Positions 11,190 through 27,888 of a stretch of DNA of 27,888 nucleotides are shown here, piece after piece (position 1 is the first letter of the stretch; every line of letters begins with the position of its first letter). The stretch is taken from positions 1 through 27,888 of the IMG/VR virus record IMGVR_UViG_3300044676_006333. One strand, written 5' to 3'. The DNA is from a virus (Duplodnaviria; Caudoviricetes). The notes under the pieces were generated by a model. That model did not search any database. It saw nothing but the letters and a program-made list of their open reading frames with translations, and had not been told where the DNA came from. The translations under genes and the position numbers were made by a program.

Positions 11190-11197
11190 TATTTATA
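11190..11197 (-). promoter_or_regulatory. T4-type late promoter (TATAAATA)
   Basis: Exact TATAAATA in the short gap upstream of g13. Confidence 0.8.
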
Positions 11198-11198
11198 C

Positions 11199-12713
11199 TT
11201 ACGTATTTGCATGACCATATGACCCTGCATAATAACCTGAGCGGAGATAATTAGGGTAGAATGATAATGAAGGTTGATAGCTATCAAAGGCAGTAACCGA
11301 AACAAAAGAAGAATATGGAAAAACAAAAGTCTTTTCTGTTTCACTATTAAAATTAAGAGGGTATGTATTCGGTGTTATAGCTAGCGTGGGTGATCCAATG
11401 TGATACATAGCTTGATGGGCATCCCCGCCGCTAGATACTTTTCCGCCGTAATGGCCAACATAATTAGTATCTCCTAACGTTGTGGCTTCGCCATCAGCTG
11501 TTGCGTGCGGATAGACTCTTACTTTTCCAATTACAGCAGAAATAGTGTTTGGACAGCCGCTGTTAGCTGACCATCCACCCCAAACATAACCCGAGGACGC
11601 ACTGCTAGTGGCGGCGTGTGCTCCATATGTGCCTTGAGGCCCTCTGTTGGTAGAACCAGATCCAGTTTGAGGTACTAAGCTTTGCCCCATGTCTGCTTGA
11701 GGTACGCTATAACTGTTACCATATGGAAATGCAGCATACGGAAATTGAACTGTTTGTTCTCTAAGACCATTACTATTTCCTGGATAATATTTATGAGCTG
11801 GGCCACTGCCAACAAAAATTTTAGCATATGTTTTTGATGATGCTGCTTGACCATGATTCCACGAAAAATCCCCAGGAGCATTGTACTGAGAGGCATAGTT
11901 TCCACCTGATTGAAAAGAAGTATCAGACGAATATGGAGTAGTCAGCCAGCTGCTAATATTCCAAACATGTATTCTTCCATTTGTATCTTCTGAATATGGA
12001 GTGCCTACCCTATTGGATGGAATAGATGATACTGGCTGCAAAATAAATTTTGTCGGATAAGAACTGATAGATGGATTTCCTATTGTCTCAATTTGATGCT
12101 GTTTTGACATTTTCCAAAAAGTATTGGAGAAGTTGTTGCTGCTTGGATATTGGGCGCCACGCATCCAATATACATGAGTAGGTGATGCAGCTTTATGCGA
12201 TTCCGTCAGGCCGTGGTGTGCTGGTCCGGCAGTACCTACCATTATAGAAGTTTTATTTGCAAAATTAGTATAGAAGACATTCTGTCTCGTAGTGCTTTTA
12301 CTGCCGCCAAGTGGTGCGTTATTGACAAGCGGGCTGTTGGCGCCGCCACTAAACCATCCAGTTGTACCAATCATATCTTTATTAAAATATGGCTGTAATC
12401 CAAGACCTTTAATTCTCCCACCCATATTCATTTTTACAAAACTTGGAGAGTTTACAATAAAGTAACTGCCAAATGTAAAAGAAGCATATTGATAGCCTCC
12501 ATTACGTGGCGTCACACCCTTTCCGGGAGCTAGATTTGGCATAAACGCTGAAGACGCTTGGGCAGGTCCAGCAGATTTTATTGAATAATGCGTGGTGTTT
12601 GGCGTACCAAAAGACATCTGAAATGCGTAACCATTGTTCGCTTGATTAGGATTACCAGGACTCGGCGTCGTGCTGCTTCCCCCAGGATTTCTTTGTAAAA
12701 AACGTACTACCAT
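11199..12713 (-). CDS. Putative virion structural protein, G/S/P/N/Y-rich, possible beta-propeller
   Basis: 504 aa with few charged residues; degenerate repeats such as SSASSGYVWGG...VRVYPHATADG, TTGWFSGG...FYTNFAN and TVQFPYAA. The fold is inferred. Confidence 0.6.
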   Translation of the reverse strand: MVVRFLQRNPGGSSTTPSPGNPNQANNGYAFQMSFGTPNTTHYSIKSAGPAQASSAFMPNLAPGKGVTPRNGGYQYASFTFGSYFIVNSPSFVKMNMGGRIKGLGLQPYFNKDMIGTTGWFSGGANSPLVNNAPLGGSKSTTRQNVFYTNFANKTSIMVGTAGPAHHGLTESHKAASPTHVYWMRGAQYPSSNNFSNTFWKMSKQHQIETIGNPSISSYPTKFILQPVSSIPSNRVGTPYSEDTNGRIHVWNISSWLTTPYSSDTSFQSGGNYASQYNAPGDFSWNHGQAASSKTYAKIFVGSGPAHKYYPGNSNGLREQTVQFPYAAFPYGNSYSVPQADMGQSLVPQTGSGSTNRGPQGTYGAHAATSSASSGYVWGGWSANSGCPNTISAVIGKVRVYPHATADGEATTLGDTNYVGHYGGKVSSGGDAHQAMYHIGSPTLAITPNTYPLNFNSETEKTFVFPYSSFVSVTAFDSYQPSLSFYPNYLRSGYYAGSYGHANT

Positions 12714-12714
12714 A

Positions 12715-13851
12715 TTAGACTCCTAACTGGGTAATTGGTCGACCAGAGTTATAAGCCTGGTTTGCAGAAGATGAAATCGGATAAAATCCACTACCATCTG
12801 TTCTCGCATAATATTGAACACCTGGAGATCTTAGTCTTATTGTTCCAGAGGCATTATAGTTTGGTGTAACTTGCCCCCAAGTTACGTTCATTTGAATTCC
12901 GCCTGATCCTGGATATGTAAATGGCGTACTAAATGTAAACGTTTTTGCGCCTGAACCAGACCACGTATAGGGCGTTGGGCCAAAATTAATAGTAGATGTA
13001 TAATAACTGCTACTAGTAGTAGACGCGGCGTTAGGAGTAGGGCCCATTGCAATTGTAAATTGCGGAGCCACTGGGCGGTTAGGCGCGGTGTTTAAATACC
13101 ATGAACACGAATTAATTGTTTTAGAACTAGAAAGCCCTGCTGTGGTCAATTCAGCTGATGGATAATTAAATCTTACAATTCCTCTTCTATACCAAGTATT
13201 AGCAATAGAATGTGTACTGTTTGGATTTGTAATGTAAGGGGTGCTGGCATATGGCGAGCCCCCAGGAAGAAAGAAAGGCCCTGAACCACCACCACTTGGT
13301 GTAGGTGTTACAGAAGTATCGCCAACCGTAACTGTAATATTTTGACCGCTTGCCCCAGTTCCATCAGCCGGATATGCTGATGGAACTGAAAAGGTCATTG
13401 TCTCAGTGCCTTCAGTCGTTAAATCATTTTGGAATTGGTAAGGAATAGCAGTTCCAAGAGTAGCTGTTCCAGAAGTTGGAGTACCAGTTGGGTTAAAATC
13501 AGGACTTGTAACACCAGTAATACTATATGGAAATGGGGTAGTGGCGCCATCAGAGGCGGTCATTGTAATTGTTACGGTATTTCCTTCATTTACGGTGGCA
13601 GTAGGAGATTTAGTTAATGTGTAAGATACAGGCACCGTCCCTGCTCCCCCCTCGCCGCCATAATCACCTGGAGATAAATCAGCATACAAAATTCCGCCAC
13701 CCATATTAATTGTGCCACTAAAATTAGTAGGCTCTAATACACCAGTCTGCGAGGTGTTAGGCGTAACAATTGTTATATCAGGGCCAACGCTATTTGAAAA
13801 AATAGTGGTTGTGGTTGTTGGTGTGTTTGATGATGTAATAGTAATTGCCAT
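12715..13851 (-). CDS. Putative virion/fibre-associated protein with a Calx-beta/Ig-like domain and a C-terminal beta-sandwich
   Basis: T/S/P/G-rich; YTLTKSPTATVNEGNTVTITM...DLTTEGTETMTFSV...VTVGDTS is a Calx-beta-like pattern seen in phage tail proteins. Start set at ATG 13851 after GGAG; the track uses TTG 13866. Confidence 0.65.
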   Translation of the reverse strand: MAITITSSNTPTTTTTIFSNSVGPDITIVTPNTSQTGVLEPTNFSGTINMGGGILYADLSPGDYGGEGGAGTVPVSYTLTKSPTATVNEGNTVTITMTASDGATTPFPYSITGVTSPDFNPTGTPTSGTATLGTAIPYQFQNDLTTEGTETMTFSVPSAYPADGTGASGQNITVTVGDTSVTPTPSGGGSGPFFLPGGSPYASTPYITNPNSTHSIANTWYRRGIVRFNYPSAELTTAGLSSSKTINSCSWYLNTAPNRPVAPQFTIAMGPTPNAASTTSSSYYTSTINFGPTPYTWSGSGAKTFTFSTPFTYPGSGGIQMNVTWGQVTPNYNASGTIRLRSPGVQYYARTDGSGFYPISSSANQAYNSGRPITQLGV

Positions 13852-13855
13852 TTTT

Positions 13856-15349
13856 TTAAACTCCAAACATGCCCATGTTGCGGCGAATTAGTGGTGTTGG
13901 CACCTGAGCATAAGTGTTTACAAATGATGCATAAGGAGTTATAGTCGGAACTATTCTAATTTGGCCACCAGAAAATGTATTATATCCTCCACCCATATAT
14001 AATTTACTATCTCCTCCAGACACTATATGCGAAGGTGACCCATGCGGCAGCATGGTGCTTGACGTTGAGGACCCGGGAAATGTGACAGGCGTTGGCGCAA
14101 GCGGCCTATATGATGTAAATACCGGAGCATTAATTGTAGTATTACTAGCAGTTGAATACTTGACTATTGCCCACTGATTCGTCCCTGTCGATGGTGGGCT
14201 AGGCGCGTATGTTCCACCACCTGCAAATATATTACCGCCACCGACATCTTGACCAACACCACTTTCATACATGCCACGGCCGTCAGGTGTTTTATGCTGA
14301 GGACCCAGTTGAGCTGCAACACTAACTGAATTAACAGATGCCGTTGGATATTTGACAAATCCCCCTTGGCCCCAGACTGTTGACCTAACAGCTGATCCGC
14401 CACCCATATGAATAGAATTATCTCCTTCTGAGTAAAAATTCCATGCACCTGAAGAACGATAATACCATCCATTTGAAGCCGGCGCCGCAGCACTTACCCA
14501 TTGTGGTAATGAAATGTTTGTTGCCAGCTGAGTTGCTATTTCACTAGCAAAAGGAAAGGTTGTGTACGTTATCTGTGGTGAATATGACGGAGAAGGCATA
14601 GTACTAGTAATTGGAACAACTGTATTGGAAAAAGTCTTAATTGCATGTAATTTATCTGGCGCAGATCCCGAGCGCTTTCCACCAGTATACGTTACTGGCT
14701 GGGGTAAATATGTGCTGATAATATTACTAGTTGAAACCGGTGCGCCATCTGTTAAACTAAGAGGAACTTTATACCATTGGCCAGATCGCGGCGCGAAATT
14801 TGGATTATAATATGGATAAAAAGTAGAACTACCGGCTTTTGCCATATACGCATTCACCGAAGAGGTGCCAGTTCCAAAGCCCCCTTGTGGCGCATTAGAT
14901 CCATAAGTTGATCCAATAACCGTTACTGTAGCACCTGGCGTTGCGGCAATTGGCATATAATGCATTCCATCAGAGCCATAACCTGCTGGATTACTGTTAC
15001 CCGTAAGACCTGCAAATTGATATATTCTTATATTAGCTTCTTCGTATGGCTCATCTCCTACACCGTGAGCATATTCTGTAGCCCATATATAACCTGGCCC
15101 GATTGCCCAACCCTGTGGAGTAGCCTGAAAAGATGTATGCTGTACGTTGCCCGGCGCCGGATTGCCGGCATATGGCGACTCTCCGGTTGCAATCACTCCT
15201 CTAATCAAATCTAAAGGACCAAATTGAGTATTTTCTCTATATTGAGGTTGTGTCGGACCAGCTGGTCCGCCAGGGTTTGTAGTAGGGGAAAATGAGTCAG
15301 GTATCCCACCATACAAGATAATACTATTTCCGGTAATCATAATAGGCAT
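13856..15349 (-). CDS. Putative virion structural protein, G/S/P/T-rich, possible beta-propeller
   Basis: 497 aa; recurring WYKVPLS, YTTFPFAS, FVKYPTAS and IVKYSTAS, often preceded by x-MGGG/AGGG; composition resembles 11199..12713. Confidence 0.6.
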   Translation of the reverse strand: MPIMITGNSIILYGGIPDSFSPTTNPGGPAGPTQPQYRENTQFGPLDLIRGVIATGESPYAGNPAPGNVQHTSFQATPQGWAIGPGYIWATEYAHGVGDEPYEEANIRIYQFAGLTGNSNPAGYGSDGMHYMPIAATPGATVTVIGSTYGSNAPQGGFGTGTSSVNAYMAKAGSSTFYPYYNPNFAPRSGQWYKVPLSLTDGAPVSTSNIISTYLPQPVTYTGGKRSGSAPDKLHAIKTFSNTVVPITSTMPSPSYSPQITYTTFPFASEIATQLATNISLPQWVSAAAPASNGWYYRSSGAWNFYSEGDNSIHMGGGSAVRSTVWGQGGFVKYPTASVNSVSVAAQLGPQHKTPDGRGMYESGVGQDVGGGNIFAGGGTYAPSPPSTGTNQWAIVKYSTASNTTINAPVFTSYRPLAPTPVTFPGSSTSSTMLPHGSPSHIVSGGDSKLYMGGGYNTFSGGQIRIVPTITPYASFVNTYAQVPTPLIRRNMGMFGV

Positions 15350-15739
15350 TTAGAATATAATACCTTTATTTTCTATATCTTCATGATACCTAATTAATTC
15401 ATCCCACTGGTCTGAGGCCTCAATTCTACAAGAATCATCACTCATTTTTAATGGATAACCATTACTGTCGTATCCAAGAATTGAGCCATCACTATCAAGA
15501 AGCAAAAACTCTCCAATATTTGAATATTTAAGATTTGATCTTCTCTCAATATAAGAAGCACTATCTAAATAAACTAGAGTGTTCGGGACGTGAAAAAAGC
15601 TGTCGGATTCTTTTGCAATATAACCCACATAGGTGTAATCAGATTCATTAAAGTCATAACCGCCAGAAGAAATAAATTCCGGCGTTTTGCCCATTTGATT
15701 TTGCGTGTCTCTATGAAGTTTATATTCAACAAAAGGCAT
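15350..15739 (-). CDS. Hypothetical protein
   Basis: 129-aa ORF abutting its neighbours (MPFVEYKLH...); no recognisable family. Confidence 0.75.
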   Translation of the reverse strand: MPFVEYKLHRDTQNQMGKTPEFISSGGYDFNESDYTYVGYIAKESDSFFHVPNTLVYLDSASYIERRSNLKYSNIGEFLLLDSDGSILGYDSNGYPLKMSDDSCRIEASDQWDELIRYHEDIENKGIIF

Positions 15740-15744
15740 TTTAA

Positions 15745-16725
15745 TTAGTCCTTATTTAATAGTGGTTTTTCTTCACTAGCGTCTTCAACATGTAAAGCAA
15801 CAGGTATAATAGAAGCTGCGCCAGCATCAGGTTTCGGATTTAGTCTAGTAATAGATAGTCTTGTTTCGCTTACTTTAAGATTGCGAGCTAAATCATTAGC
15901 TAAAGAATTTACAAATTCAAATAATTCTCGCGTATCCCAATTATCGCTGTTCTCTTCTCTAATTAAATAGTTTTTAATAGCATTAAGCAGTTTTGAAGGA
16001 TTAATTCCAATTTGTTCTAAGTATTCCTGTTCACCCTTAGTAATAGATCCGCTTTGCCTAACATCCCGAATACATTGTTGGATTGATCTAGACATATGTG
16101 CATATGCTTGATCTTCTTCGATTTCATATTCAGTAATTCCTGAAACCGTTTTATTAAGCTCTTCATAATTTCCTTTAATTGCAATTAGATCTTTCATAGC
16201 ACCTTCTAACATAAGAAGATCGCGTTCTTCTGAAGAACGCATTGAGCCTAATGCTAGCATTAAACGCATTTTCTTAAATCTTTGTTGCGGAATAGATTCA
16301 TCTAATTGACCAAGTTTATGTTCTACTTCTTGAATTTTAATTTGAGTTTCTAAAACATTCCATTTTGATTGATCGACAATATCAGCTTTATTTTGAATTT
16401 CAGCAGATATTTGGCGCATATTTAAAATAGGGTCAAAGTTAGAAAAGTTAATATGTTTCCATGCATATTGAGTATGCGCATGATTCCAAATTTCATTTAG
16501 ATTAGTTGCAATCTGAACAGCTTCATCACAAAGCTTAGCATTTTCTACTAGACTTTTACCTCCAAAGCTTTTCCTGCCAGCATACATTCCTTTACTATAA
16601 ACTTCAGCAATTGAGAGCTTTACGCCTCCACCTAATTTATCTGGATCAGTTAAAAGATTTTCAATATTATCTAGAATTGATAAATCTTTTTTACCATCAA
16701 TTTTTTTCACAGCGTTCTTTGCCAT
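15745..16725 (-). CDS. Hypothetical alpha-helical/coiled-coil protein
   Basis: Heptad-like central part (ETQIKIQEVEHKLGQLDE...LEGAMKDLIAIKGNYEEL). Start set at ATG 16725 (MAKNAV) after AAGGAAG; the track start at 16758 overlaps the upstream gene. Confidence 0.75.
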   Translation of the reverse strand: MAKNAVKKIDGKKDLSILDNIENLLTDPDKLGGGVKLSIAEVYSKGMYAGRKSFGGKSLVENAKLCDEAVQIATNLNEIWNHAHTQYAWKHINFSNFDPILNMRQISAEIQNKADIVDQSKWNVLETQIKIQEVEHKLGQLDESIPQQRFKKMRLMLALGSMRSSEERDLLMLEGAMKDLIAIKGNYEELNKTVSGITEYEIEEDQAYAHMSRSIQQCIRDVRQSGSITKGEQEYLEQIGINPSKLLNAIKNYLIREENSDNWDTRELFEFVNSLANDLARNLKVSETRLSITRLNPKPDAGAASIIPVALHVEDASEEKPLLNKD

Positions 16726-16735
16726 AATACTTCCT

Positions 16736-18118
16736 TTATCTAAATCTACTTCTGCCATGTACCCAAATAACTAGGCAATATCTTGTCCCTTCTTCAATGG
16801 GCTTGACCATATGCGGCAAATAACTTGGGAACATATTAATTGCACCCTTTTCTTTTGAGCCTATGACTTCCATACCATTGTTATTTATAATAAGATCGCA
16901 CCCTTTATATTCTGAAGGATCTGTTAACTGAATTACAATTGATAACTTACGAGTTGCTGATTCGCCTGGACCAACATCCATATGCCAATTATAGTAATCT
17001 TTTTGTTCTGCGGCTGGATCAAATTTGTATTCTAACAATTGTATATTGTTATGGAAACCAACTAATTCAAAGTCGTAATAAAATTTATTTACTACTTGTA
17101 TAGCATTTGCTATCTTATTAAAAATTCCAACTGTTTTTTCATCTTTCATAACACCATAAACTTTACAGCTTCTAATTTGTTTTGCGACTTGAGCGCCGGT
17201 CATATTAGATCCTACTCCAGCATCCGTCGCATATTGTTTACTAACAACTTCATCCATCAGCATTTGGATATCGTCAGGCGTAAGAACTATTTGAGAATTA
17301 TGCTCATCTGGGGTAATTGACAAATGTCCAGGTAAATCATGATCTTTAGGACTAAGTACTGTCATATCATGATAAATGCTGCTAAAAGTTCTTAGTTGAG
17401 TTTTTGCATATTCTTCTAATTCACCATACATCTGGTCGTTATTAGCGCCTTCTTGAACTTTTTGGTTAGCTGGGCGTTCACCGAGATTATTTCTTCCATC
17501 TTTATGCATATCTTTATGAGGGCCATTAGCATCGACATAATGAAAAAATACTTGAACTTGCCAATCACCTTTAAATTTATCGCGATAATGATCGAGTTCG
17601 CACCCACGGTACAAGCACAAATCGCCTCTATCTAAAATAACATTTCTAGCATCGCCCATATGAATAGGCCAAATTGGATAGTCAGAAAAATCCACTGTCA
17701 TAGTGGCGCTAATTTCGCACGAAGGACGATCTTTATGAATTTTTAATTCTTCTCCTTTGTAATAAATTCTGGAATATGTATATGTTGGAAGAAGATCAAT
17801 GCCAACCATTTCGCCGAGCGGTTTAGCTAATTCTTCAAGCATTTTATCCCATTCAGGATCTCCATAGATAGAATCAGACAAAGGGCATTGTGGATCTTTT
17901 TCTGTTTTTCCCGCATCGCGTAAATCAAACATATGTTTAGAAAGTTGTTTACACCGATCTTCTGGAATAACGTCAGTAATAACAAGAAATCTTTGCTCTT
18001 CAAATGTTTTAGCTGGGGTCATCGCCGGCCCAGCCATATCTTGTTGTATCATTTGCTTTGTGTGTTCCACTTGCTCTGTGTGTTTCACTTCTTGTGGTTT
18101 AGTTCCTAGTGTAATCAT
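16736..18118 (-). CDS. Tandem (two-domain) 2OG-Fe(II) dioxygenase
   Basis: N-domain: TYSRIY...HKDRPSCEISAT...GDLCLYRGCELDHYR. C-domain of PKHD/P4Hc type: WHMD...RKLSIVIQLTDPSEY...FPSYLPHMVKPIEEGTRYCLVIW. Confidence 0.88.
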   Translation of the reverse strand: MITLGTKPQEVKHTEQVEHTKQMIQQDMAGPAMTPAKTFEEQRFLVITDVIPEDRCKQLSKHMFDLRDAGKTEKDPQCPLSDSIYGDPEWDKMLEELAKPLGEMVGIDLLPTYTYSRIYYKGEELKIHKDRPSCEISATMTVDFSDYPIWPIHMGDARNVILDRGDLCLYRGCELDHYRDKFKGDWQVQVFFHYVDANGPHKDMHKDGRNNLGERPANQKVQEGANNDQMYGELEEYAKTQLRTFSSIYHDMTVLSPKDHDLPGHLSITPDEHNSQIVLTPDDIQMLMDEVVSKQYATDAGVGSNMTGAQVAKQIRSCKVYGVMKDEKTVGIFNKIANAIQVVNKFYYDFELVGFHNNIQLLEYKFDPAAEQKDYYNWHMDVGPGESATRKLSIVIQLTDPSEYKGCDLIINNNGMEVIGSKEKGAINMFPSYLPHMVKPIEEGTRYCLVIWVHGRSRFR

Positions 18119-18130
18119 TATTAAATTCCT

Positions 18131-19150
18131 TTAAATCATAAGCCATCTATCATTAGATAGGGTCCAGTTAACTACTTCTTCAATTCTTTTTTGCACAGGT
18201 TTTGGTTCCCATCCAAGCGATTTCATTTTAGATCCGTCAAGAGCATAGCGTAAATCATGGCCAGGACGACTTGTATGAAAGTCAACCATTTCATAATTAA
18301 GTTTTTTGCCTTGAGCATCAGCAATCATTTTTGCCAATTCTAGGTTATTTATTTCATTTGCTCCGCAAATATTAAACTTAGGGCATTTGGCTCCAGTGTT
18401 GTCAGCTACTGCTTCAAACTTATTTTTTAACAAAAATAAAGTAGCATCTGCCACATCTTCGGCATGAATATAATGACGAGATCCTGGAGTTGTTTTTGCG
18501 GCATCAGAATGAATTGTTACTGTTTCTCCATCTCTTGCTTTCTTAATACACATTGGAAAAAACTTTTCAGGGTGTTGTCTTTGACCAAACACATTCATAG
18601 TATGCGTAATGTAAATTGGCATTCCATAAGTATTTTCATATGCTACTGCTAATTCTTCGCCGCCAGCCTTCGAAGCACTATATGGATTTGTACAATTGTA
18701 CCTATCATTCTCTTTATATTTAATTCCATCAGGAGCTGGACCAAAGATTTCATCTGTTGAAAAATATAAGAAACGTTCTAAATTATCTTGCTGTCTAGCA
18801 AATTCTAGTACGTTACATGTACCAACAACATTATCCATTACAAATTCCATTGGTCTATCAATGGAACGATCTACATGTGAACCAGCGGCAAGATGCGCAA
18901 CAATATCTACTTTACCAATATCTGATTTAAGCATTGGATTGATTTCAGCTTTAAAATCATGGTAGATTGTGCGAACTCTTTTACGTTCAGCTGGAGCATA
19001 ATCTTGTAGCAAATCATGCAATCGATTTAAATTACCACTATAATCAAGACGATCTAGTGTTACAATTTCCCAATCAGTCCGTTTTAGAACTTGTCCAATT
19101 AAATGATGGGCAATAAAACCTGCACCGCCAGTAATTAAAATTCTTTTCAT
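18131..19150 (-). CDS. rmlB: NDP-glucose 4,6-dehydratase (RmlB/RfbB-like extended SDR)
   Basis: Rossmann motif ILITGGAGFIA, HLAAGSHVDRSI, catalytic STDE, YSASK (YxxxK) and RPGHDLRYALD. Nucleotide specificity (dTDP vs UDP) cannot be determined by eye. Confidence 0.9.
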   Translation of the reverse strand: MKRILITGGAGFIAHHLIGQVLKRTDWEIVTLDRLDYSGNLNRLHDLLQDYAPAERKRVRTIYHDFKAEINPMLKSDIGKVDIVAHLAAGSHVDRSIDRPMEFVMDNVVGTCNVLEFARQQDNLERFLYFSTDEIFGPAPDGIKYKENDRYNCTNPYSASKAGGEELAVAYENTYGMPIYITHTMNVFGQRQHPEKFFPMCIKKARDGETVTIHSDAAKTTPGSRHYIHAEDVADATLFLLKNKFEAVADNTGAKCPKFNICGANEINNLELAKMIADAQGKKLNYEMVDFHTSRPGHDLRYALDGSKMKSLGWEPKPVQKRIEEVVNWTLSNDRWLMI

Positions 19151-19160
19151 TCATTCACCT

Positions 19161-20423
19161 TTAAATTTTCAAAACATGTGGATAGCGAATGCTATCATCT
19201 TTTACAGCTGTTAACCAAGCTGTTGTAACTAATACTTGTAAATTTTCCATCCAATCATTTGGATAATAAGTTTCTTTACGAAATTCCTGAAAACGAATTT
19301 TATCATTATCAATAAAATCTCCGAGATATTTATCAGTATAATATAAGAAGCTATTTTGGTTCCAATAACTTACATGAGTTGGATCTTGAAATGCACCACG
19401 GCCATCTGTGCTTGGTACTTCAATAAATGCCCAACCACCGTGCGCCAATACTCTATGTATCTCTCCCATAATTTTTGTCTTATCATGTAGATGTTCAAGA
19501 ATATGACTTGCATTTAAAACACCGACACTGTTATCAGGCAATGGAATTCCGTCATTTAAATCTGCGACAGTATCTGCATTTTTTCTTGTGTCAACCGTAT
19601 GATAACCGGGATATGGATTTAATCCTCCTCCAATATCAATTTTCATCAAGCCACGTAAATCGGCATCTCTTTCAGCAAGAAGCTGGCCATACTCTCTAAA
19701 TAGATCTACAGTTTTTATTTGAATTGCTTCATTACGTTCTAACCATGTATTATTACCAGTAATTCTATATAAGTAAAGGACTTTTGGTATGCGTTTCATT
19801 TTAGTAATAAGGTAAGTACGAATCATAAGCTCGTGGTCGTCACAAATAGAAAGGTCATTATTGTGGCCATCAACTTCTTCATAAATATCTTTACGCCAAG
19901 AACGAACATGATCTGGAGCGTACCATATATAAGATAAAGATTGAGCGCTTGGTTCAAAACTATGCATGGCCTTTAGCGTTTGGCCTTTCCATTCAAACTC
20001 TCTCCAAGTCCAACCGCCGTCTTCGCCATATGGAATAAATTCTCCTTCCATTTGTAATACAGCATTATCGCTATAAACAAATCCAACTTCAGGATCAGAT
20101 TCATACGCCTTTTTTAATTCTTCTAAACAATCAGGAGTAATTAAATCATCGTGATCGACTTCTACTAAAACATCGCCTGTACCAATACCAAACGCTGCTT
20201 TTTTAATTGCACCAATATTTGTATCAGTATCGTGCGTACGGAATATAATTACCTGAGCATGATTTTTTATTTGATCTGGAATGTGTTCTACTTGAATTTT
20301 ATTATTCAAATATAAAATCCACTCCCAATCTTTGTATGTTTGATTAAGAACACAATCAAATAATTCTAAAAGAAAGGGAATGTTACCTGGATCATGTTCA
20401 GGTGTAATAATACTAAATTTCAT
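19161..20423 (-). CDS. GT2-family glycosyltransferase fused to a C-terminal class I SAM-dependent methyltransferase
   Basis: N-terminus: FSIITP, LNQTYKDWEWIL, DxD motif VEVDHDDL, VGFVYSD, CDDHEL. C-terminus: KIDIGGG, DLNDGIPLPDNSV, ASHILEHL, EIHRVLAHGGWAFIEVP. Confidence 0.88.
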   Translation of the reverse strand: MKFSIITPEHDPGNIPFLLELFDCVLNQTYKDWEWILYLNNKIQVEHIPDQIKNHAQVIIFRTHDTDTNIGAIKKAAFGIGTGDVLVEVDHDDLITPDCLEELKKAYESDPEVGFVYSDNAVLQMEGEFIPYGEDGGWTWREFEWKGQTLKAMHSFEPSAQSLSYIWYAPDHVRSWRKDIYEEVDGHNNDLSICDDHELMIRTYLITKMKRIPKVLYLYRITGNNTWLERNEAIQIKTVDLFREYGQLLAERDADLRGLMKIDIGGGLNPYPGYHTVDTRKNADTVADLNDGIPLPDNSVGVLNASHILEHLHDKTKIMGEIHRVLAHGGWAFIEVPSTDGRGAFQDPTHVSYWNQNSFLYYTDKYLGDFIDNDKIRFQEFRKETYYPNDWMENLQVLVTTAWLTAVKDDSIRYPHVLKI

Positions 20424-20458
20424 AATATACTATCCTGGTTTGAAAAGCTGTTACTTTT

Positions 20459-20487
20459 ATTATATACGGTTTTGCTGGAATGTAAAC
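20459..20487 (-). promoter_or_regulatory. Sigma70 / T4 early-type promoter
   Basis: Minus strand reads GTTTAC (20487-20482), 17 nt spacer, TATAAT (20464-20459), in the only sizeable gap of the enzyme cassette; matches the T4 early consensus. Confidence 0.72.
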
Positions 20488-20490
20488 AGT

Positions 20491-21225
20491 TTATTTCGTA
20501 TTATACCAAATAACTGCATGAGGATCTGACTTTTCTTCTTCTGGTCTATCTTCAGTATAATAATACAGAGCAAGTGAATATCTAGATACAGTTTCAGGAC
20601 ACTGGAGAGGCTCTGGATGTCCATGAAATGCGTCGTCTGTGATATTGAATACCACCGCTCTATTAAAAATAGGTTCTACTTTAACACAACACTTTGAAAG
20701 ATCTTTATCCCATAATTCAAGATGTCCATTCCATTCTGGATTCCAATCTTCATTTAAATAAATTAAAACATTAATTCTACGATGAAGGTTATTTACAAAG
20801 TTAACATTAAAATCTGCATGGACACCTAACTTACCACCTCTTGAAATTTTATGCATTCCTGCGCCTAGCCAGTTTTCATCTGGTAACAATCCTTGAATGC
20901 CAGTTAAATCTTCAAGAAAGTTTAATACTGTTTCAGAATACATGTAATCTAAAATAAGTTTTGTTTTAGGAGCATACTTAGCTAAAATTTCAACGTCATT
21001 CGGATCTGCTACTACATCAGGCGCATATTGTTTTAAAATTTGAAATTCTTCTACCCATTCTGACTCATCTTGTCTCCAGTGTTGATAGTTTTCTATTTCA
21101 GGGATAGCCTGTCGGAGCATCCAAGGATCTAGGAAATTATCCAATATGGTATGAGGAAACGGATACGCTTCTCTATAAGAAGCAACAGATGTGTCTAGTA
21201 CTGATAAGATTTTATTGTTAAGCAT
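20491..21225 (-). CDS. 2OG-Fe(II) dioxygenase (prolyl-hydroxylase-like, 2OG-FeII_Oxy_3 type)
   Basis: PFPHTILDNFL, HAD, RRINVLIYLN, FNRAVVF, FHGHP and RYSLA give a full HxD...H...RxS set. Confidence 0.9.
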   Translation of the reverse strand: MLNNKILSVLDTSVASYREAYPFPHTILDNFLDPWMLRQAIPEIENYQHWRQDESEWVEEFQILKQYAPDVVADPNDVEILAKYAPKTKLILDYMYSETVLNFLEDLTGIQGLLPDENWLGAGMHKISRGGKLGVHADFNVNFVNNLHRRINVLIYLNEDWNPEWNGHLELWDKDLSKCCVKVEPIFNRAVVFNITDDAFHGHPEPLQCPETVSRYSLALYYYTEDRPEEEKSDPHAVIWYNTK

Positions 21226-21227
21226 GA

Positions 21228-23273
21228 TTAATCAAAAAAGAATAAGTGTGTGAGTCTGCTGTCGTGTAAGTCTTTTCCAAAATATTCTCCAGCAGAATGA
21301 ATATGCCTTGCATCAAAAATAGCAAGACGATTAAATAAATTTCCTACAGTATCAAGAGTATGAAATCGAGTGGAATCTAGAAAGTTTCCATCAAATGCGT
21401 CATCAATAATATCTGCATCTTCTATACTGTGCTTAGCTTTATTTATCTTAGAAATATGTAGGCGTGTTCCGCTTTCATATGGAGCGTTTGGCGACAAATA
21501 AATCATTGCAGCCCAACGTTGCTGGTCAAAATGCCAAACTTGTGGATCTTGTGCTCTTGTAACTTGGAATACGCCATTCATACCGCCATCCCAATCTACA
21601 ATTTTTTCACCAATGATATTTTCAAATCTATATTTTAAGTCAATTGGTCGATATTTTTCTTCTGAACGAAACCCTTTGTACCATCGGCTATCTTCTTGAA
21701 AATTAAGGCTAGTTAATGCCCAGTCTCTTAGTTCATCTGGTCTTTCATAAAAGTTATCTACAACCCATACTCTTTTTGTTGGAATTTTATTTACTGCAAA
21801 ATATGTAACATCTTTTTTAGAGTTTCTTGCTTGATTTAAAGTTTCAGTATCTTGCTGAATCAATATAGGTTTAGGTGATGCTCTATTTTTTACATCAGGG
21901 TGGCTAAATAGCCATTCCTCATTTAGTCTTTCAATGTTAATTCTTTTACATATTTGATGAAGGTAATCCAAATTAGAATCTTTTGAAATCCAAATTCTAG
22001 CAATATAATCTCCCAATGGCGTAACGTTTTTAGTTCCATCCCAATCTTGAACATCTATTTTGCCTTGCTTCCAATAGCTTTTTGCCCAAGGACATAAATC
22101 AATTATAGAATCAAAATACATTTCCCAATCAGTAGATTCTTCTTCAGGGTACATTTCATTTAATCTAGTAGCTTCTTTATATAACCTTTGAACATCGCCA
22201 GTTCCGTCAACATAATGTTTTCTGTCAATAAAGTTACAATATTGAGGAAATGGAAATGTTCTTTCAGGATCCATCATTATTGTAGTTGTGTCCAACATTT
22301 TTTTATATTGTTTTGTTTCCTGATATAAATGAACCATTTGCCATAGATGGTCATTTCTTCCAGGAGCAAATTGTTCAAGCATTGAATATGCAGTTATAGC
22401 TTCTTTCTTTTTTCCCATAAAATTATAGCATTCACCAGCCATAATTCCAGCCATATAGCACATCTCATCTATACCAATATCACCCTTTTTATTTTTCATA
22501 GTTTGATTAATATATTCGTTTAAATACCAAATAGATCTACGGGCATATTCGTCTGCTTGTTTTTTCTTTAATGGAAAAGCAGATGATTCCATTGCATCTC
22601 TATAGCTCTTACCAATGTACCAGAAATGATACATATTTTCTAAAAGGTTTTGCTCACGGATAAGTTTTTCTTCTAATCGCAAAGCATCTGAAATAAATTT
22701 AGTAGGAACTGCCCACGACATTCCGTCATTAGATCCAATTTGATTAAAACCTAACGGCAGTGGATAAGCATTATAATTATGGTCAATTTCTGGATCTAGG
22801 CAATAAATGGTTTCATGACAAGGATCGTGATTAAACGCCCATTGTAAATCGTTATTCCATAGCCAAGTTCTATAATAAACACCAGTTCCACTTACTGCTG
22901 GAATATTAAACCCATGAATTGTTTTATCATTAAATACAGACCAATCGAAATCATCATAAACTTCTAAAGTTTCATCGCAGTCCATTTTAAGAATCCAATC
23001 ACACCCATGATCGACTTCATTTTGGCAATATCGAATTAAATGATCTCGGTTCCATCCAAAACCTTTCCAGCCTTCTTCCACTTCATAAAGAACTCCTGGA
23101 ATATTATTTTCCTTAGCCCAATCTTTTACAATATCTGGAGAACCATCTGTTGAGCCATTATCTTGAATTACATAATAATCAATATATCCAAGTACAGAAT
23201 CAAGCATCTTTCGAAGAACAGGCGCCTCATTCTTAAACATGGCGACCATAACAATTTTACATTCTTTATTCAT
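21228..23273 (-). CDS. Multidomain protein: GT2 glycosyltransferase + TPR-like helices + small insert domain + C-terminal 2OG-Fe(II) dioxygenase-like (DUF6445-like) domain
   Basis: GT2: MFKNEAPVLRKMLDSV, DNGSTDGS, FGWNRD, LKMDCDE, HETI. TPR-like: WYIGKSYRD, EAITAYSMLEQFAPGRND. C-terminus: VVDNFYERPDELR, WHFD, AAMIYLSP, FNRLAIFDARHIHSA, RLTHLFFFD. Confidence 0.85.
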   Translation of the reverse strand: MNKECKIVMVAMFKNEAPVLRKMLDSVLGYIDYYVIQDNGSTDGSPDIVKDWAKENNIPGVLYEVEEGWKGFGWNRDHLIRYCQNEVDHGCDWILKMDCDETLEVYDDFDWSVFNDKTIHGFNIPAVSGTGVYYRTWLWNNDLQWAFNHDPCHETIYCLDPEIDHNYNAYPLPLGFNQIGSNDGMSWAVPTKFISDALRLEEKLIREQNLLENMYHFWYIGKSYRDAMESSAFPLKKKQADEYARRSIWYLNEYINQTMKNKKGDIGIDEMCYMAGIMAGECYNFMGKKKEAITAYSMLEQFAPGRNDHLWQMVHLYQETKQYKKMLDTTTIMMDPERTFPFPQYCNFIDRKHYVDGTGDVQRLYKEATRLNEMYPEEESTDWEMYFDSIIDLCPWAKSYWKQGKIDVQDWDGTKNVTPLGDYIARIWISKDSNLDYLHQICKRINIERLNEEWLFSHPDVKNRASPKPILIQQDTETLNQARNSKKDVTYFAVNKIPTKRVWVVDNFYERPDELRDWALTSLNFQEDSRWYKGFRSEEKYRPIDLKYRFENIIGEKIVDWDGGMNGVFQVTRAQDPQVWHFDQQRWAAMIYLSPNAPYESGTRLHISKINKAKHSIEDADIIDDAFDGNFLDSTRFHTLDTVGNLFNRLAIFDARHIHSAGEYFGKDLHDSRLTHLFFFD

Positions 23274-24004
23274 AATGATTTCTCAGCCCGTTTTTTAATA
23301 AACTCAATAATATCATCGTTATTTATTTGATCTTTTCGTGGACTATACAAAGCCCTAGGTCTATCTACCGCGGTATCAGCAATAGGCGACAAATAATACA
23401 TAGCAATGCTTTTTCTATATATTCCATTAGGGCAATTAATAGATTCTGGAAATCCATGCCATGAATTTTGTGTAGTATCAAACAAAACTGCTCTATTAAA
23501 TACGCAGTCAATAGAAGATGAAATTTCATGAGCTTGGTTTAATTCTGGATTATGACTCCAAAATTCAAGATTCCCACCCCATTCTTTTTTCCAATTAGGA
23601 GTAAGATATATAATGATGTTCCATTTCCTTTGCATATTTGCCATAGGATGAATAGAATAATCTTGATGAATATTTAAATGGTCTCCACGTTTACTCATAT
23701 GCCAACCAGCACCGTGCAAACCATAATCAGGTTTTAAACATTCATCACCTGTCAGTTTTCTTAATTTGTCTGTAAATTTTTCACAGCATAAAGATAAAAA
23801 CAATTGATATGTTTCTGGAGGAAATGATCCCCAAGTTTGAATTGCCTTTTTTCTTTCTAATGGATTGTCATAAGCAAACCATTTTTCAGATGAATGCGAT
23901 GGAAATTGTTTTGATAATGTATGAGCTAGATCTGCTTTTAAAAAGTTGTCTATCACGAAATGTTTAAAAGGTGCTTCATACTCTTTTGCATGACTTAAGT
24001 CCAT
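23270..24004 (-). CDS. 2OG-Fe(II) dioxygenase (paralogue of 20491..21225)
   Basis: Motifs PFKHFVIDNFL, HQD, RKWNIIIYLT, FNRAVLFDT, WHGFP and RKSIA. Confidence 0.9.
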   Translation of the reverse strand: MDLSHAKEYEAPFKHFVIDNFLKADLAHTLSKQFPSHSSEKWFAYDNPLERKKAIQTWGSFPPETYQLFLSLCCEKFTDKLRKLTGDECLKPDYGLHGAGWHMSKRGDHLNIHQDYSIHPMANMQRKWNIIIYLTPNWKKEWGGNLEFWSHNPELNQAHEISSSIDCVFNRAVLFDTTQNSWHGFPESINCPNGIYRKSIAMYYLSPIADTAVDRPRALYSPRKDQINNDDIIEFIKKRAEKSL

Positions 24005-24573
24005 TTTGGTCCTTCAAACCACGCAGAAATACTATAGCGAACCCCTTTTGTTACAGGTAAAGCTCTATGACTTAAAACTGAAGGAAAATATATAAATGTT
24101 CCTTGAGCCTTATAATCATTTGGATCCGGTGGATTGGATGAGCCAGTAATTTCTAATTCGCCACCTTCATAATCATTTGGATCTGATAATTGTAAAACAC
24201 AAGATACTTTTCTATGATGTGATGGATCATCATTCATCCAAAATGTATCTACGTGTTCTTTATATTCGCCCTGAACGGCCGAATTATATTCAGCAAATTG
24301 CACGTATTCAAGTCTATTGACGTGAATATTAAAAAAATCTTGATTTGCTTGTATTTGTGTTTTCCATAAAGTATCAAAAAGTTTTTGGAATTTCCAATCA
24401 CCAGCTTGAATAAACGATACTTTACTTTTACGATATTCTGTAAGGTGCGCATCTTCGCCCAGACCAACTACAGCATCTTGTGATGGTAATAGTTTAGCCT
24501 GAGCAATAATTTCTTCGCAATCTTCTTTACTTAAATACGAACCAAAATAACACCAGTCGCCGTCCCATGCCAT
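23995..24573 (-). CDS. 2OG-Fe(II) dioxygenase, PKHD/P4Hc-like
   Basis: Motifs HVD, RKVSCVLQLSDPNDYEGGELEI and FPSVLSHRALPVTKGVRYSISAWFEGP; GAGGTG RBS. Confidence 0.92.
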   Translation of the reverse strand: MAWDGDWCYFGSYLSKEDCEEIIAQAKLLPSQDAVVGLGEDAHLTEYRKSKVSFIQAGDWKFQKLFDTLWKTQIQANQDFFNIHVNRLEYVQFAEYNSAVQGEYKEHVDTFWMNDDPSHHRKVSCVLQLSDPNDYEGGELEITGSSNPPDPNDYKAQGTFIYFPSVLSHRALPVTKGVRYSISAWFEGPKWT

Positions 24574-24599
24574 AAATCACCTCTTTTATTATAATTTAA

Positions 24600-24854
24600 T
24601 TAAACTTCAAATTTAATATATACGTGTGTAGTATCTTCATCATATTGATGAATATATCTTTCGCCATCTTCTAAAGTTGCTTCATCTGGCGCTTCAGTTA
24701 TTGCTTCTGCTGCAGTAAATTGCGCTTCAGAGTTTTGTGTCAATTTCCACCAACCCGTTGCATTAATTGCTGCGTCTATGGCAGCTTCGCCTTCATTAAA
24801 AAAGCCTTCTTTACTATTTAAGCCTAATTCTGATGTTGTTAGATCAATTGCCAT
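24600..24854 (-). CDS. Small acidic hypothetical protein coupled to the collagen fibre gene
   Basis: 84 aa; its start overlaps the end of the fibre gene; no motif recognised. Confidence 0.7.
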
Positions 24855-26646
24855 TTAACTTTCCTATTCTAGATTTTAAATCATTAATTTGATTTTTTTG
24901 TTCTTTTAACGCTTCAACCACCAAAGGAACAACTCTTGCATAATCTACTGTAAGATATTTCTTACCTGATTTACTATGCCCGTGTCTATTTATATCAAAT
25001 GGAGCACCACGAACAACCTCAGGTAAAGCCTTCTCTAGTTCTTGAGCAATCAAACCAATTTTTCTACCAGACCTATCTCCAGCAATATTCATGGCTAATT
25101 TATTTGGTGAATAGAAATAGCCATTTAATTTACTAATTCTTTTAATAGGATTATCAATTGGACCTTTTACATTTTTTAAGCGCCTGTCTGAATACCCAGC
25201 AACAATATCTAATTGGGCGCGAACATCGCCTGAGACCATTCCGTCATCTACAGGAGCTGGAGATCCAATTCTTACAAAACCAGTGGTTTCATTAATTACT
25301 CCAGGTGTACCTTGATAACCTTGATAGCCCTGAACACCTTGATAACCACCAACACCACCTCCGCCTCCTACACCTGTTCGTCCTTGATAACCACTTGCTC
25401 CAGAAGCGCCACCACTGCCCTGTGGTCCTCGTGGACCCTGCGGACCGCGATACCCTGTTGTCGGAGCACCCTGTCTACCTTGATAGCCTTGGACACCTTG
25501 ATAACCTTGAACACCAGTTACACTACCAGCAGCACCAGTTGCGCCAGTTGCTCCGGATGGTCCTTGCGGTCCTCTTCCACCCTGCGGTCCACGATGGCCA
25601 GATCTACCAGTTGAACCTTGTGTACCTTGTCTGCCTTGAACACCAGTTGCGCCCTGAGGTCCTCTAGCACCTTGTGGACCTCTTCCGCCCTGTGGACCGC
25701 GTGATCCTTGCGAACCCTGTGGTCCTTGCGGTCCTCTTCCACCCTGAGCACCTTGTCTACCTGTTGCACCAGTAGATCCTTGTCTACCCTGTGGACCTCT
25801 TCCGCCTTGTGGTCCTTGCGGACCTTGGACACCCTGTGGTCCAGTTCCACCTTGAGAACCTTGAACACCTTGAGTACCCTGAGCGCCTTGAACACCTTGC
25901 GGTCCTCTTCCGCCTTGCGGTCCTCTTCCACCTTGAAAACCTTGTGCGCCGGTTCCGCCTTGTGGCCCTTGAGCGCCTTGAGCACCTTGTCTGCCCGTCG
26001 GCCCTTGTGTACCTTGCCTACCCTGAGGTCCTCTAGCTCCTTGCGCGCCTTGCGGTCCTCTTCCACCTTGTGGGCCTTGATTGCCAGTGTGGCCAGTAGA
26101 TCCTTGAACACCTTGCCGACCAGCAATACCAGTTGATCCGCCAGCACCGCCTGATCCTTGGACACCCTGTGGTCCAGTTCCACCTTGAGCACCTTGTCTA
26201 CCAGCAACACCACCAATACCACCAATACCAGTTGCGCCTACTGCGCCCTGAGCACCTATTGGATTATTACCCTGCCTACCTTGCGGTCCTTGTGTACCCT
26301 GCCTACCTTGCGCGCCTTGTCTACCGGTCGACCCTTGCGGCCCTTGCTGGCCAGTTCTACCAGTTGCTCCTTGCGGACCTTGTGGTCCTTGTGGTCCTTG
26401 AGCACCTTGAACACCAGTTGCCCCTTGAACACCTTGAAAACCTGGTACTCCACCTACACCTTGAAAACCTGCAGCGCCAGTTTGACCAGCAACACCAGTA
26501 AAACCTTGAATACCACTTCTACCCGTTGGCCCTTGTGGTCCTTTAATATTATTATTAACAGAGCCAAGCCAAACACCGTCGCTGTCAACTAGATCAGTAC
26601 CGTTAATGGTAACACCATTTTTGACTATGAAGGGTTGCTTAGCCAT
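24844..26646 (-). CDS. Collagen-like fibre protein with a C-terminal peptidase S74 intramolecular chaperone
   Basis: Gly-X-Y from about residue 36 to 449, then YSDRRLK (Ser/Lys dyad spacing), [22 protein letters not shown] and [18 protein letters not shown] coiled coil. Confidence 0.93.
25300..26541 (-). repeat. Gly-X-Y collagen repeat (about 135 triplets; 9-bp periodic, GC-rich DNA)
   Basis: [18 protein letters not shown] triplets with a few interruptions (GNNPIG, GSVTG, GAPTTG). Confidence 0.95.
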
Positions 26647-27886
26647 TTAATTCTCTTTGTTCTACTTTTTGTCTTAGTATATTTATTTGTGCTTGCTGCT
26701 CTTTAATAGCTTGCAATAATAGCGCAACAACTCTATCATACTTGACAGTTTTATATTTTTTATTAATAGGCGCAGTTGCAATAAGTTCAGGAGCAACCTC
26801 TTCAATTTGTTGAGCAATAAGGCCAAGTTTACGTCCATCATCTGGCAAGCCTAAACTTTTACCTAACCCATTTACTGTAAAATAAATTCCAGTGATTGAT
26901 TTTAATTTTTGAACTGCATCTTTTATTACTTCAATTTGTTCTTTTAATCTTTCATCTGAATAACCAGCAGTAATTCCGCCCCCTACCCAAATAGATCCTG
27001 TAGGACTTGACCACTGCGAAGAGTTAGTGCCAATTCTTAATCTACTACCAGTCAGCTCGTACGTTACAGAATCTGCGCCGCCCGGACCCTGCGGGCCCTG
27101 TGGTCCTCGTGGACCCTGTGGACCGCGATAGCCCCCAGGGCCTTGAACACCTTGATAACCTTGAGGACCCTGCGCACCTTGGCGTCCAGCTACGCCAGTT
27201 CTACCAGTAGGACCAGTTCCGCCTTGCGGTCCTCTTACGCCAGCTGTACCCTGTGGTCCTTGCGGTCCTCTTGAACCCTGTGGACCGCGCAAACCCTGCG
27301 CTCCTTGTCTGCCAGTATATCCTTGAACACCAGTTCTACCAGTAACAGACCCACTCGGTCCAGTTCCACCCTGTGGTCCTTGAACACCTTGAGCGCCAGA
27401 AGCTCCTTGAGTACCTTGATAACCTTGAACGCCAGTTCTACCACCCGTGCCAGTTACGCCACTAGATGCGCCAGTAACACCACCAACACCTGTTGCGCCC
27501 TGAGCACCAGTTGTGCCTGTTGGATTTGTACCTTGTCTACCTTGAAAACCAGAAACACCCTGAGCGCCCTGTCTACCACCAGCACCAGTTGCACCAGTTG
27601 CACCGGCTGGAGGAAGATTACCTAAACCAAGAAGATTAGCAATTGAAGGTTCGTTCCCGTCTATTTTATCTACGCGAGGATGGGCAAACTGTTGGTTAGT
27701 AGATGTATTAGTAGAATAATAAAGATATGTTCTATGCGTAGCGCCATTAGCATTAGCAGACCAAACGAAGTCACTATTTGATGCAATTTTATGTCCATCA
27801 GTAGTCCAAACACCAGTATCAGCGTCATTTGAACCAATACCTGTTCCAGCTGCCCAAACGTGACCTACAACTAAATACCATGTATC
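26639..27886 (-). CDS. Second collagen-like fibre protein with an S74 chaperone (N-terminus beyond the window edge)
   Basis: The frame is open from 27886 to the stop at 26639 (the track start at TTG 27292 is internal): [14 protein letters not shown]...HRTYLYYST...[18 protein letters not shown], then Gly-X-Y, then YSDERLK...[16 protein letters not shown]...[18 protein letters not shown]. Confidence 0.93.
27077..27604 (-). repeat. Gly-X-Y collagen repeat of the second fibre
   Basis: [15 protein letters not shown]...[16 protein letters not shown], with interruptions GTNPTG, GASSG and GSVTG. Confidence 0.93.
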
Positions 27887-27888
27887 AG

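Follow-up and report, generated by a model that had tools for sequence, protein, structure and literature searches.

The window analyzed here covers positions 1 to 27,888 of the IMG/VR virus record IMGVR_UViG_3300044676_006333 (Duplodnaviria, Caudoviricetes). It belongs to an uncultured T4-like phage and spans the structural region, with g22 through g13 encoded on the minus strand. Upstream of the neck gene g13 it encodes collagen fibers and a cassette of modification enzymes. The core of this arrangement comprises the collagens, one or two 2-oxoglutarate-Fe(II) (2OG) oxygenase genes, a fusion of a family 2 glycosyltransferase (GT2), tetratricopeptide repeats (TPRs) and the oxygenase domain DUF6445, and a second GT2 fused to a methyltransferase; an RmlB-like dehydratase, a double oxygenase and genes rich in Ser, Thr and Pro (S/T/P) are add-ons. 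Judged from the genes, there is an even chance that the module O-glycosylates Thr/Ser residues of the phage's own collagen fiber, lengthens the glycan and adds a methyl cap. Gene content, domain families, motifs, co-occurrence, rod composition and length matching are established, and activity, substrate, sugar and virion location are predicted.

Genes for 2OG oxygenases and glycosyltransferases (GTs) rank with the most common accessory genes in aquatic phages, and most often they are assigned to host metabolism or lipopolysaccharide (LPS). The accessible text of one survey terms the use of viral prolyl 4-hydroxylases (P4Hs) cryptic (PMC9301287). The module suggests a candidate for the substrate, the order in which the enzymes would act and the residues that would accept the sugar. 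If the proposed reading is true, many such genes would serve to build the virion, and collagen O-glycosylation would extend to bacteriophages, and a cytoplasmic kit for glycosylated, perhaps mixed-chain collagen would become available.

Conservation of the module beside phage collagens

Every gene between 11199 and 27888 lies on the minus strand, with intergenic gaps of -23 to +67 nt. The original prediction, made from the sequence alone, described collagen genes followed by seven enzyme genes on one strand with minimal gaps. This is borne out: the seven genes hold six 2OG-Fe(II) domains, two GT2 domains, one class I methyltransferase and one RmlB-like dehydratase. The HxD...H triad is present in all six oxygenase domains (two sets in the 460-aa protein), and the GT2 domains bear DCDE and DHDD motifs. 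The TPRs of the 681-aa protein are an addition to the earlier description. Two collagen genes with S74 domains do stand in the window, as had been stated, but a nearly identical metagenome contig (L478) holds three in all. The order of collagens, enzymes and S/T/P-rich genes also stood, but not their direct succession: an 84-aa open reading frame (ORF) separates collagens from enzymes, and ORFs of 337 and 129 aa separate enzymes from S/T/P-rich genes.

To the portal proteins of phage C48C1 and Pelagibacter phage HTVC008M, that of the window is 67% and 52% identical, respectively, and the RNA runs containing the stretch are marine. Metatranscriptome contigs from three runs in two studies cover the cassette and structural genes patchily; they are silent on strand, level and timing, and are not used as evidence.

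To gauge conservation, all 124 fetched GT2-TPR loci were clustered at 90% identity, which gave 48 lineages, and collagen was scored in the fetched flank. The usual order is three collagens, the 192-aa and 244-aa oxygenases, GT2-TPR-DUF6445, GT2-methyltransferase and g13. GT2-methyltransferase adjoins GT2-TPR in 47 lineages, the 244-aa family in 35 and the 192-aa family in 27, compared with two for RmlB and one for the double oxygenase. Weaker RmlB-like genes occur in L256, L296 and L307, and a second 244-aa oxygenase is present in few relatives. The expectation that the cassette would accompany collagen fibers upstream of g13 across T4-like genomes thus held for a conserved module in many lineages. 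Collagen lies near GT2-TPR in 28 of the 48, of which 24 are in the neck region; 14 of the 48 have less than 8 kb of upstream sequence, and no neck-region lineage with at least 8 kb upstream lacks collagen. All three cultured phages with related enzymes encode collagens, adjoining the enzymes in two, Tunturi_5 and DSL-LC02. A GTDB scan for bacterial counterparts, confined to close relatives, gave three loci, two of which resemble phage contigs in bins and have collagen adjoining the module.

Collagen rods and the predicted route of glycosylation

The longest Gly-X-Y runs of the two window collagens, 82 and 30, are well above chance, since 1000 shuffles gave none longer than 11 and 8. Both proteins carry a C-terminal Peptidase_S74 domain. 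L478, which is 99.92% identical to the window over 10,269 nt and extends past its end, encodes three collagen-S74 proteins: 589 aa (137 triplets), 812 aa (131) and 600 aa (137). The 589-aa gene lies upstream of the others, and the 812-aa gene, interrupted by the window end, includes a 227-aa insert. This non-collagen domain (window 27620-27888, L478:8810-11248, L482:8816-11248) had no Pfam match and is found in chain B here and in chain C in L482; pieces 41-42% identical to it occur in non-collagen proteins (L483, L484), and it is a candidate receptor-binding domain.

In a tree of the chains, every genome contributes a single chain of each type, A, B and C; this is so in all 17 sets formed by 16 module trios and this phage. 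Support is 100/98 for A and 99/98 for C, and B falls between them without a starred branch. The 20 complete trios that are distinct have triplet counts between 58 and 269 from genome to genome, with a difference of about 2% within a genome. The coefficient of variation of rod length within trios is 0.022, compared with 0.238 after shuffling (none of 10,000 shuffles as low); in this phage the rods measure 455, 450 and 460 residues. Large inserts lie outside the matched length. In eight other pairs of neighboring collagens the median difference is 20%, against 2.6% in trios. Recent copying was considered as the source of equal rods and is unlikely, because at most 41 of about 1,700 24-mers are common to the chains and S74 identity is 50% within one genome but 59-64% within one chain type.

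The three chains are likely to be one equal-length set that is assembled together. Whether they form a single ABC triple helix is put at about even odds on sequence grounds. The C-terminal helix is on average acidic in A (-1.2) and basic in B and C (+1.3 and +1.4). Together with the chain types and matched lengths this fits one such helix, but the breaks in Gly-X-Y differ between chains in most trios, and chain-specific breaks also fit three separate fibers held at one length. Collagen rises by about 0.29 nm per residue, which gives a rod of about 130 nm. A more ambitious picture is conceivable, though rather unlikely: a widespread group of T4-like aquatic phages would make an ABC heterotrimeric collagen fiber (about 130 nm in this phage), kept in register by three distinct S74 chaperones, hydroxylated and glycosylated by one fused GT-TPR-oxygenase along a non-lysine route, and extended and methyl-capped by a second enzyme. 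Mixed-chain collagen and its maturation pathway would then be an independent viral invention. Another family of collagen-S74 trios, also matched in length but with N-termini that are longer, occurs in L165, L166, L189 and L205 with no enzymes within 10 kb; in G084, a record of this family, GT2-TPR and the second GT2 are located elsewhere.

The 405 triplets of the three rods in this phage hold Gln at 217 Y positions, Thr or Ser at 98 (24%) and Pro at three, with X-Pro in 80, 69 Arg, three Lys and two acidic residues. In chain C the Y positions carry Gln (76), Thr (22), Arg (13), Ser (5) and Pro (3), and Lys is absent. Across 48 chains of relatives (6661 triplets) there are eight Lys, 7% Y-Pro (0-28% per chain), 26% X-Pro, 53% Y-Gln and 1409 Y-Ser/Thr (21%). 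Thr and Ser would thus be ready acceptors in the rods.

The 681-aa fusion is the probable initiating enzyme. Its GT2 domain (PF00535, E 1.8e-11; D98, D100 and E101 invariant in 21 sequences) is directly followed by the TPR matches and, further on, by DUF6445 with the triad H581/D583/H659; the profile has 947 relatives. In a Foldseek search the predicted model (pLDDT 81.8) best matched the peptide glycosyltransferases SunS/ThuS (E 2e-14; PDB 7msn, 7msp, 7msk). Over GT plus TPR, residues 2-317, these structures align with Z 19-21 (Z 20.6, rmsd 3.2, 271 aligned), compared with 16.1 for the next GT2, and in the model the TPRs pack against the GT as they do in SunS. The profile's one GT match in the PDB is GmaR (22ao, E 7.6e-6). 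Going by their PDB titles, SunS and GmaR act on proteins or peptides, and GT2-TPR looks like an enzyme of this protein- or peptide-modifying type. It differs from SunS, ThuS and GmaR in its low identity (13-16%) and in the oxygenase that follows the TPRs, and a glycocin-like precursor was not recognized nearby. Between TPR and DUF6445 lies an insert of about 110 aa (residues ~380-490, window 21800-22140), which is absent in aligned relatives and present in L478 and L480; its model confidence is low and it has no Pfam match.

Among the closest known parallels is SgtA of C. difficile, a GT-A plus TPR enzyme that adjoins bclA3; according to the accessible text, it transfers sugar in vitro to Thr/Ser within the collagen region (PMC7157674). 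As in SgtA/BclA3, a GT-A plus TPR enzyme is found beside a collagen-like gene, and repeat Thr/Ser are the proposed acceptors. The two enzymes were compared by build. Unlike SgtA, the phage enzyme is fused to a 2OG domain and accompanied by a second GT2-methyltransferase and more oxygenases. The rod also differs from the Gly-Pro-Thr repeats reported for BclA3 in being Gln-rich (Gly-X-Gln 54%) and ending in an S74 chaperone.

The GT2 of the 420-aa fusion matches the sugar-chain glycosyltransferases chondroitin polymerase, WrtF, TarS and SpsA, which fits a role in chain extension, and its class I methyltransferase has a DIGGG motif. A virus GT fused to a methyltransferase is also known from chlorovirus PBCV-1, in which A064R caps the virion glycan (PMC9614988). 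In the available text of that source, domain 1 of A064R is GT34-like and the target is a capsid N-glycan; the present fusion, of predicted activity, has a GT2 and belongs to a bacteriophage. By analogy, the module most likely works like SgtA/BclA3 with an A064R-type cap, outside the L230/LH3 system.

The smaller oxygenases have complete triads: H107/D109/H169 in the 192-aa protein, which best matches PiuC and then P4Hs, and H113/D115/H183 and H136/D138/H201 in the two 244-aa proteins, which are 29% identical to each other and whose family finds OGFOD1 and prolyl hydroxylases at the top of its PDB matches. DUF6445 has a fold like OGFOD1/Tpa1 (Z 13.9). A P4H-like 2OG domain with HxD...H plus a basic residue is present, and PiuC or OGFOD1 outscore P4Hs. 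Likeness of 2OG folds leaves the substrate undefined. The PHROG labels 'ferrochelatase', 'DNA endonuclease V' and 'minor coat protein' were dropped, as motifs and folds identify these proteins as 2OG oxygenases.

In the proposed pathway, GT2-TPR would grip the rod during assembly and add the first sugar to Y-position Thr/Ser; the second GT2 would extend the glycan, and the methyltransferase fused to it would cap it. The weakest step is the target of the 2OG oxygenases, which would hydroxylate either the glycan or the rod, the latter at Gln or X-position Pro. A 6-deoxy-sugar precursor would come from RmlB, in this lineage only. The benefit would be a long fiber that is shielded and protease-resistant.

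Oxygenases have been linked to collagen-like genes before. In the accessible text of Iyer et al. 2010 (PMC2938197), bacterial hydroxylase/sulfotransferase operons include collagen-like or tail-collar genes, which they are predicted to modify. The phage module shares with them 2OG oxygenases beside collagen-like genes. Those operons are bacterial, use other oxygenase families and sulfation, and appear there without mention of a glycosyltransferase; cyanophage arrays are assigned in the same text to small metabolites. A literature search, which reached a minority of subscription papers, found no published description of the module, and a SunS mechanism paper was not found.

Strength of the collagen link and competing explanations

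Three scans anchored on g13 gave 96 loci with at least 7 kb upstream, grouped into 64 lineages. A GT2 is present in 10 of the 12 lineages with collagen and in nine of the 52 without (Fisher p 3e-5); five of those nine contain this module, with collagen beyond the fetched 10 kb or a contig that ends first. In a partial scan that selected for collagen only (73 loci, 57 lineages), 22 lineages have the cassette's second GT2 family in the fetched flank.

Other results weigh against the link and the reading built on it. Of the three g13 anchors, two derive from loci that themselves carry the module. When the cassette's own GT families alone are counted, the g13 table becomes 4/12 versus 5/52 (p 0.055), and 2OG genes do not track collagen (5/12 versus 11/52, p 0.16). 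Phylogenetic correction leaves six to eight independent pairs, with 4.4-5.4 in the same direction and 0-0.4 in the opposite one, and the link is then not significant: the median p is 0.125 with six pairs under strict coding and 0.0625 with eight, the latter using hand-coded extensions and dropping five truncated loci. Neither enzyme class lies near the collagen in 29 of the 57 collagen-selected lineages; of 20 such records, all partial, 18 have no enzymes at all and two have them elsewhere. Y-Thr is not enriched where enzymes are nearby (median 16.3%, against 15.6% without). The GT2-methyltransferase of S-CRM01 is about 50 kb from its collagens, and in a 735-kb phage (L476, L477) that encodes both GT types, collagen is missing from the 12 kb around them. 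Collagen-free islands hold other GT, sulfotransferase and methyltransferase cassettes, so that the region is generally enzyme-rich.

The original prediction had named a cassette occurring independently of collagen as evidence against it, and this was found in part. Six of the 48 GT2-TPR lineages have long flanks and no collagen nearby, and several of them set the GT pair beside ribonucleotide reductase/ThyX with none within 10 kb. On the GT tree the unlinked lineages need two changes, the ribonucleotide reductase/ThyX clade and L256/L307; the downstream flanks of L256 and L307 are short, and their sister L296 has collagen 7 kb away. Twelve longer records have the second GT2 without collagen nearby (G017, with collagens at the record's other end, was excluded). 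Eight of these have collagen elsewhere; the remaining four, 20-67% complete, have none, which also counts against the link. In one lineage of the ribonucleotide reductase type, a 105-aa gene with a phage tail-collar domain stands just upstream of the GT pair (L032:9374-9691).

Other enzymes occupy this position in some relatives. In five collagen-bearing lineages close to this phage, the site is taken by a GT4-GT2(-FkbM) protein unrelated to the module's GTs (L135:6698-9970, L143, L147, L148, L151), which speaks for the link; the adjoining collagens are richer in Y-Thr (34%) and X-Ser/Tyr/Phe. Collagen-free islands before g13 (L366, L404, L433, L114, L099) hold sulfotransferase with APS kinase and UDP-galactopyranose mutase, heptose/Kdo genes, or carbamoyltransferase.

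Among competing explanations, the best placed keeps the substrate and changes the linkage: DUF6445 or its PHD/P4H-like neighbors would first put a hydroxyl on X-Pro or Gln of Gly-Pro-Gln, and GT2-TPR would glycosylate there. This is possible though unlikely. The fusion of GT and oxygenase in one chain, the 947 profile relatives, the OGFOD1/Tpa1, prolyl hydroxylase and PiuC/P4H matches, and the abundance of X-Pro and Y-Gln in the rods all speak for it, as does DUF6445 adjoining GT2-methyltransferase even without GT2-TPR (L007, L024, L048, L056). SunS, going by its PDB title, acts on existing Ser/Thr/Cys, which counts against prior hydroxylation; so do the lack of tracking between 2OG genes and collagen in the g13 sample and the presence of DUF6445 alone, with no collagen, in L236-L246. 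SgtA-type enzymes likewise act on existing Ser/Thr in the accessible text of PMC7157674.

Somewhat less probable is that the cassette alters LPS or another envelope glycan of the host against superinfection and sits here as part of a plastic host-recognition island. In its favor are the likeness of the second GT2 to GTs of the cell wall and capsule, the common occurrence of RmlB in O-antigen synthesis, and the GT pairs that adjoin nucleotide-metabolism genes. The accessible part of PMC7029224 calls the island upstream of g13 in pelagi- and cyanomyophages a "host recognition cluster"; the window resembles it in position, upstream of the neck genes, and in its fibers and glycosyltransferases. 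That source assigns the GTs to modification of the host O-chain, a published reading that stands against fiber glycosylation. However, its argument is built mainly on GT8 and not on SunS-like GT2-TPR, and the fixed module and collagen trio are not described in the text available. The same module also stands beside collagens in phages whose g13 is just 33-43% identical, and most close g13 relatives without collagen also lack the module. A separate late promoter between collagens and enzymes is not conserved (3/24), which fits one transcript with the fibers. A candidate late promoter ahead of the enzymes was rejected: TATAAATA at 24987 and 16882 falls inside genes, there are eight matches against 4.1 expected, and the motif is there in 3 of 24 relatives. 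By comparison, TATAAAT precedes g13 in 21 of 34 module lineages.

General coating of the virion, with the S/T/P-rich proteins, other fibers, capsid or tail tube as targets, is improbable. Glycosylation of mycobacteriophage capsid and tail tube has been reported (cited in the accessible text of PMC12619734), and the three adjacent proteins have S+T+P of 29-39%, against 5.5-20% in the core structural genes g13-g22. This confirms the richness claimed for these putative virion proteins; their virion location stays putative. Recognizable homologs of them were found only in the window's close g13 relatives, whereas the GT core spans 48 lineages, and the one examined gave a weak lead toward a beta-propeller and none toward a mucin. 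The original prediction had singled out the bracketing of the enzymes by candidate substrates, the S/T/P-rich proteins included. As a property of the system this is not supported, since hardly any relative of the core has the S/T/P-rich genes, RmlB (2/48) or the double oxygenase (1/48). In this phage the add-ons and S/T/P-rich genes lie between the core and g13, and the 337- and 129-aa genes occur free of the core, so the bracketing is local.

The animal or Mimivirus route, with 4-hydroxyproline at Y and hydroxylysine bearing Gal or Glc, is very improbable, and its Lys branch is largely refuted by rod composition: P4H structures among the PDB matches of the 192-aa family and higher Y-Pro in module collagens (median 5.5% versus 0.8%; up to 28% in some relatives) favor it, but with three Lys and three Y-Pro in 405 triplets here, and eight Lys in 6661 in relatives, the L230/LH3 route would lack a substrate and 4-hydroxyproline at Y would have almost no sites in this phage. 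The collagen chemistry invoked earlier fails on the enzymes as well: neither GT2 is best like PLOD/LH3, LH3 ranks 20th for the GT2-TPR model (TM 0.18), and the genes have no GT_PLOD or GT25 match, though Pfam detects such a fusion in L131. Mimivirus L230 and human LH3/PLOD3 do share with the 681-aa protein a GT and a 2OG oxygenase in one chain, and Mimivirus is, in the accessible text of PMC9614988, a virus with collagens; the GT family is different, and the phage protein has a TPR spacer. The L131 gene (8037-9962), in a marine relative, lies immediately ahead of g13 and encodes a 641-aa protein in which GT25 and PLOD-GT are fused. It is accompanied by radical SAM and 2OG genes, with collagen further upstream in the record; it is closer to animal collagen glycosyltransferases than the window's enzymes.

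Add-ons and annotated features

The RmlB-like protein has GGAGFIA, TDE and YSASK motifs and scores 252.8 bits against TIGR01181, under the cut-off of 365. RmlC was not found in either of two partial records searched; the host might supply RmlC and RmlD. The double oxygenase also adjoins 129-aa homologs without the GT core (L142). The 337-aa protein had no match in Pfam, PHROG, NCBIfam or Atlas, and it and the 129-aa gene occur without the core elsewhere, for example in a 121-kb record that lacks collagen and GT2; the 337-aa gene also stands upstream of g13 in phages with neither.

Features of the window, listed from the collagens to g13
Feature	Position	Strand	Remark
Collagen-S74 fiber chain B	26639..27888	-	only the 3' part lies in the window; 812 aa when complete (L478), 227-aa insert without Pfam family
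Collagen-S74 fiber chain C	24844..26646	-	600 aa, 137 triplets
84-aa ORF	24600..24854	-	no known family; seen only in the window's own lineage
2OG-Fe(II) oxygenase, 192 aa	23995..24573	-	PiuC/PKHD- and P4H-like; core module
2OG-Fe(II) oxygenase, 244 aa	23270..24004	-	OGFOD1/PHD-like; core module
GT2-TPR-DUF6445(2OG) fusion, 681 aa	21228..23273	-	
Second 244-aa oxygenase	20491..21225	-	OGFOD1/PHD-like
GT2 + S-adenosylmethionine (SAM) methyltransferase fusion, 420 aa	19161..20423	-	
RmlB-like NDP-glucose 4,6-dehydratase, 339 aa	18131..19150	-	lineage add-on
Double 2OG-Fe(II) oxygenase, 460 aa	16736..18118	-	phrog_2954-type + PKHD-type; add-on
337-aa protein	15745..16758	-	no known family; separate module
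129-aa protein	15350..15739	-	no known family; accompanies 337-aa gene
S/T/P/G-rich protein, 497 aa	13856..15349	-	
S/T/P/G-rich protein, 383 aa	12715..13866	-	S+T+P 39%; no family
S/T/P/G-rich protein, 504 aa	11199..12713	-	no family; 7 database homologs
T4-type late promoter motif TATAAATA	11190..11197	-	before g13; marks block end
Neck protein g13	10411..11163	-	boundary marker

The beta-propeller lead concerns the 497-aa protein and is of Kelch/BNR type (feature score 0.85, from a low-confidence model). In L139:1-9936, six tandem S/T/G-rich genes of 410-550 aa, one with a Kelch match, are followed by homologs of the 337- and 129-aa genes.

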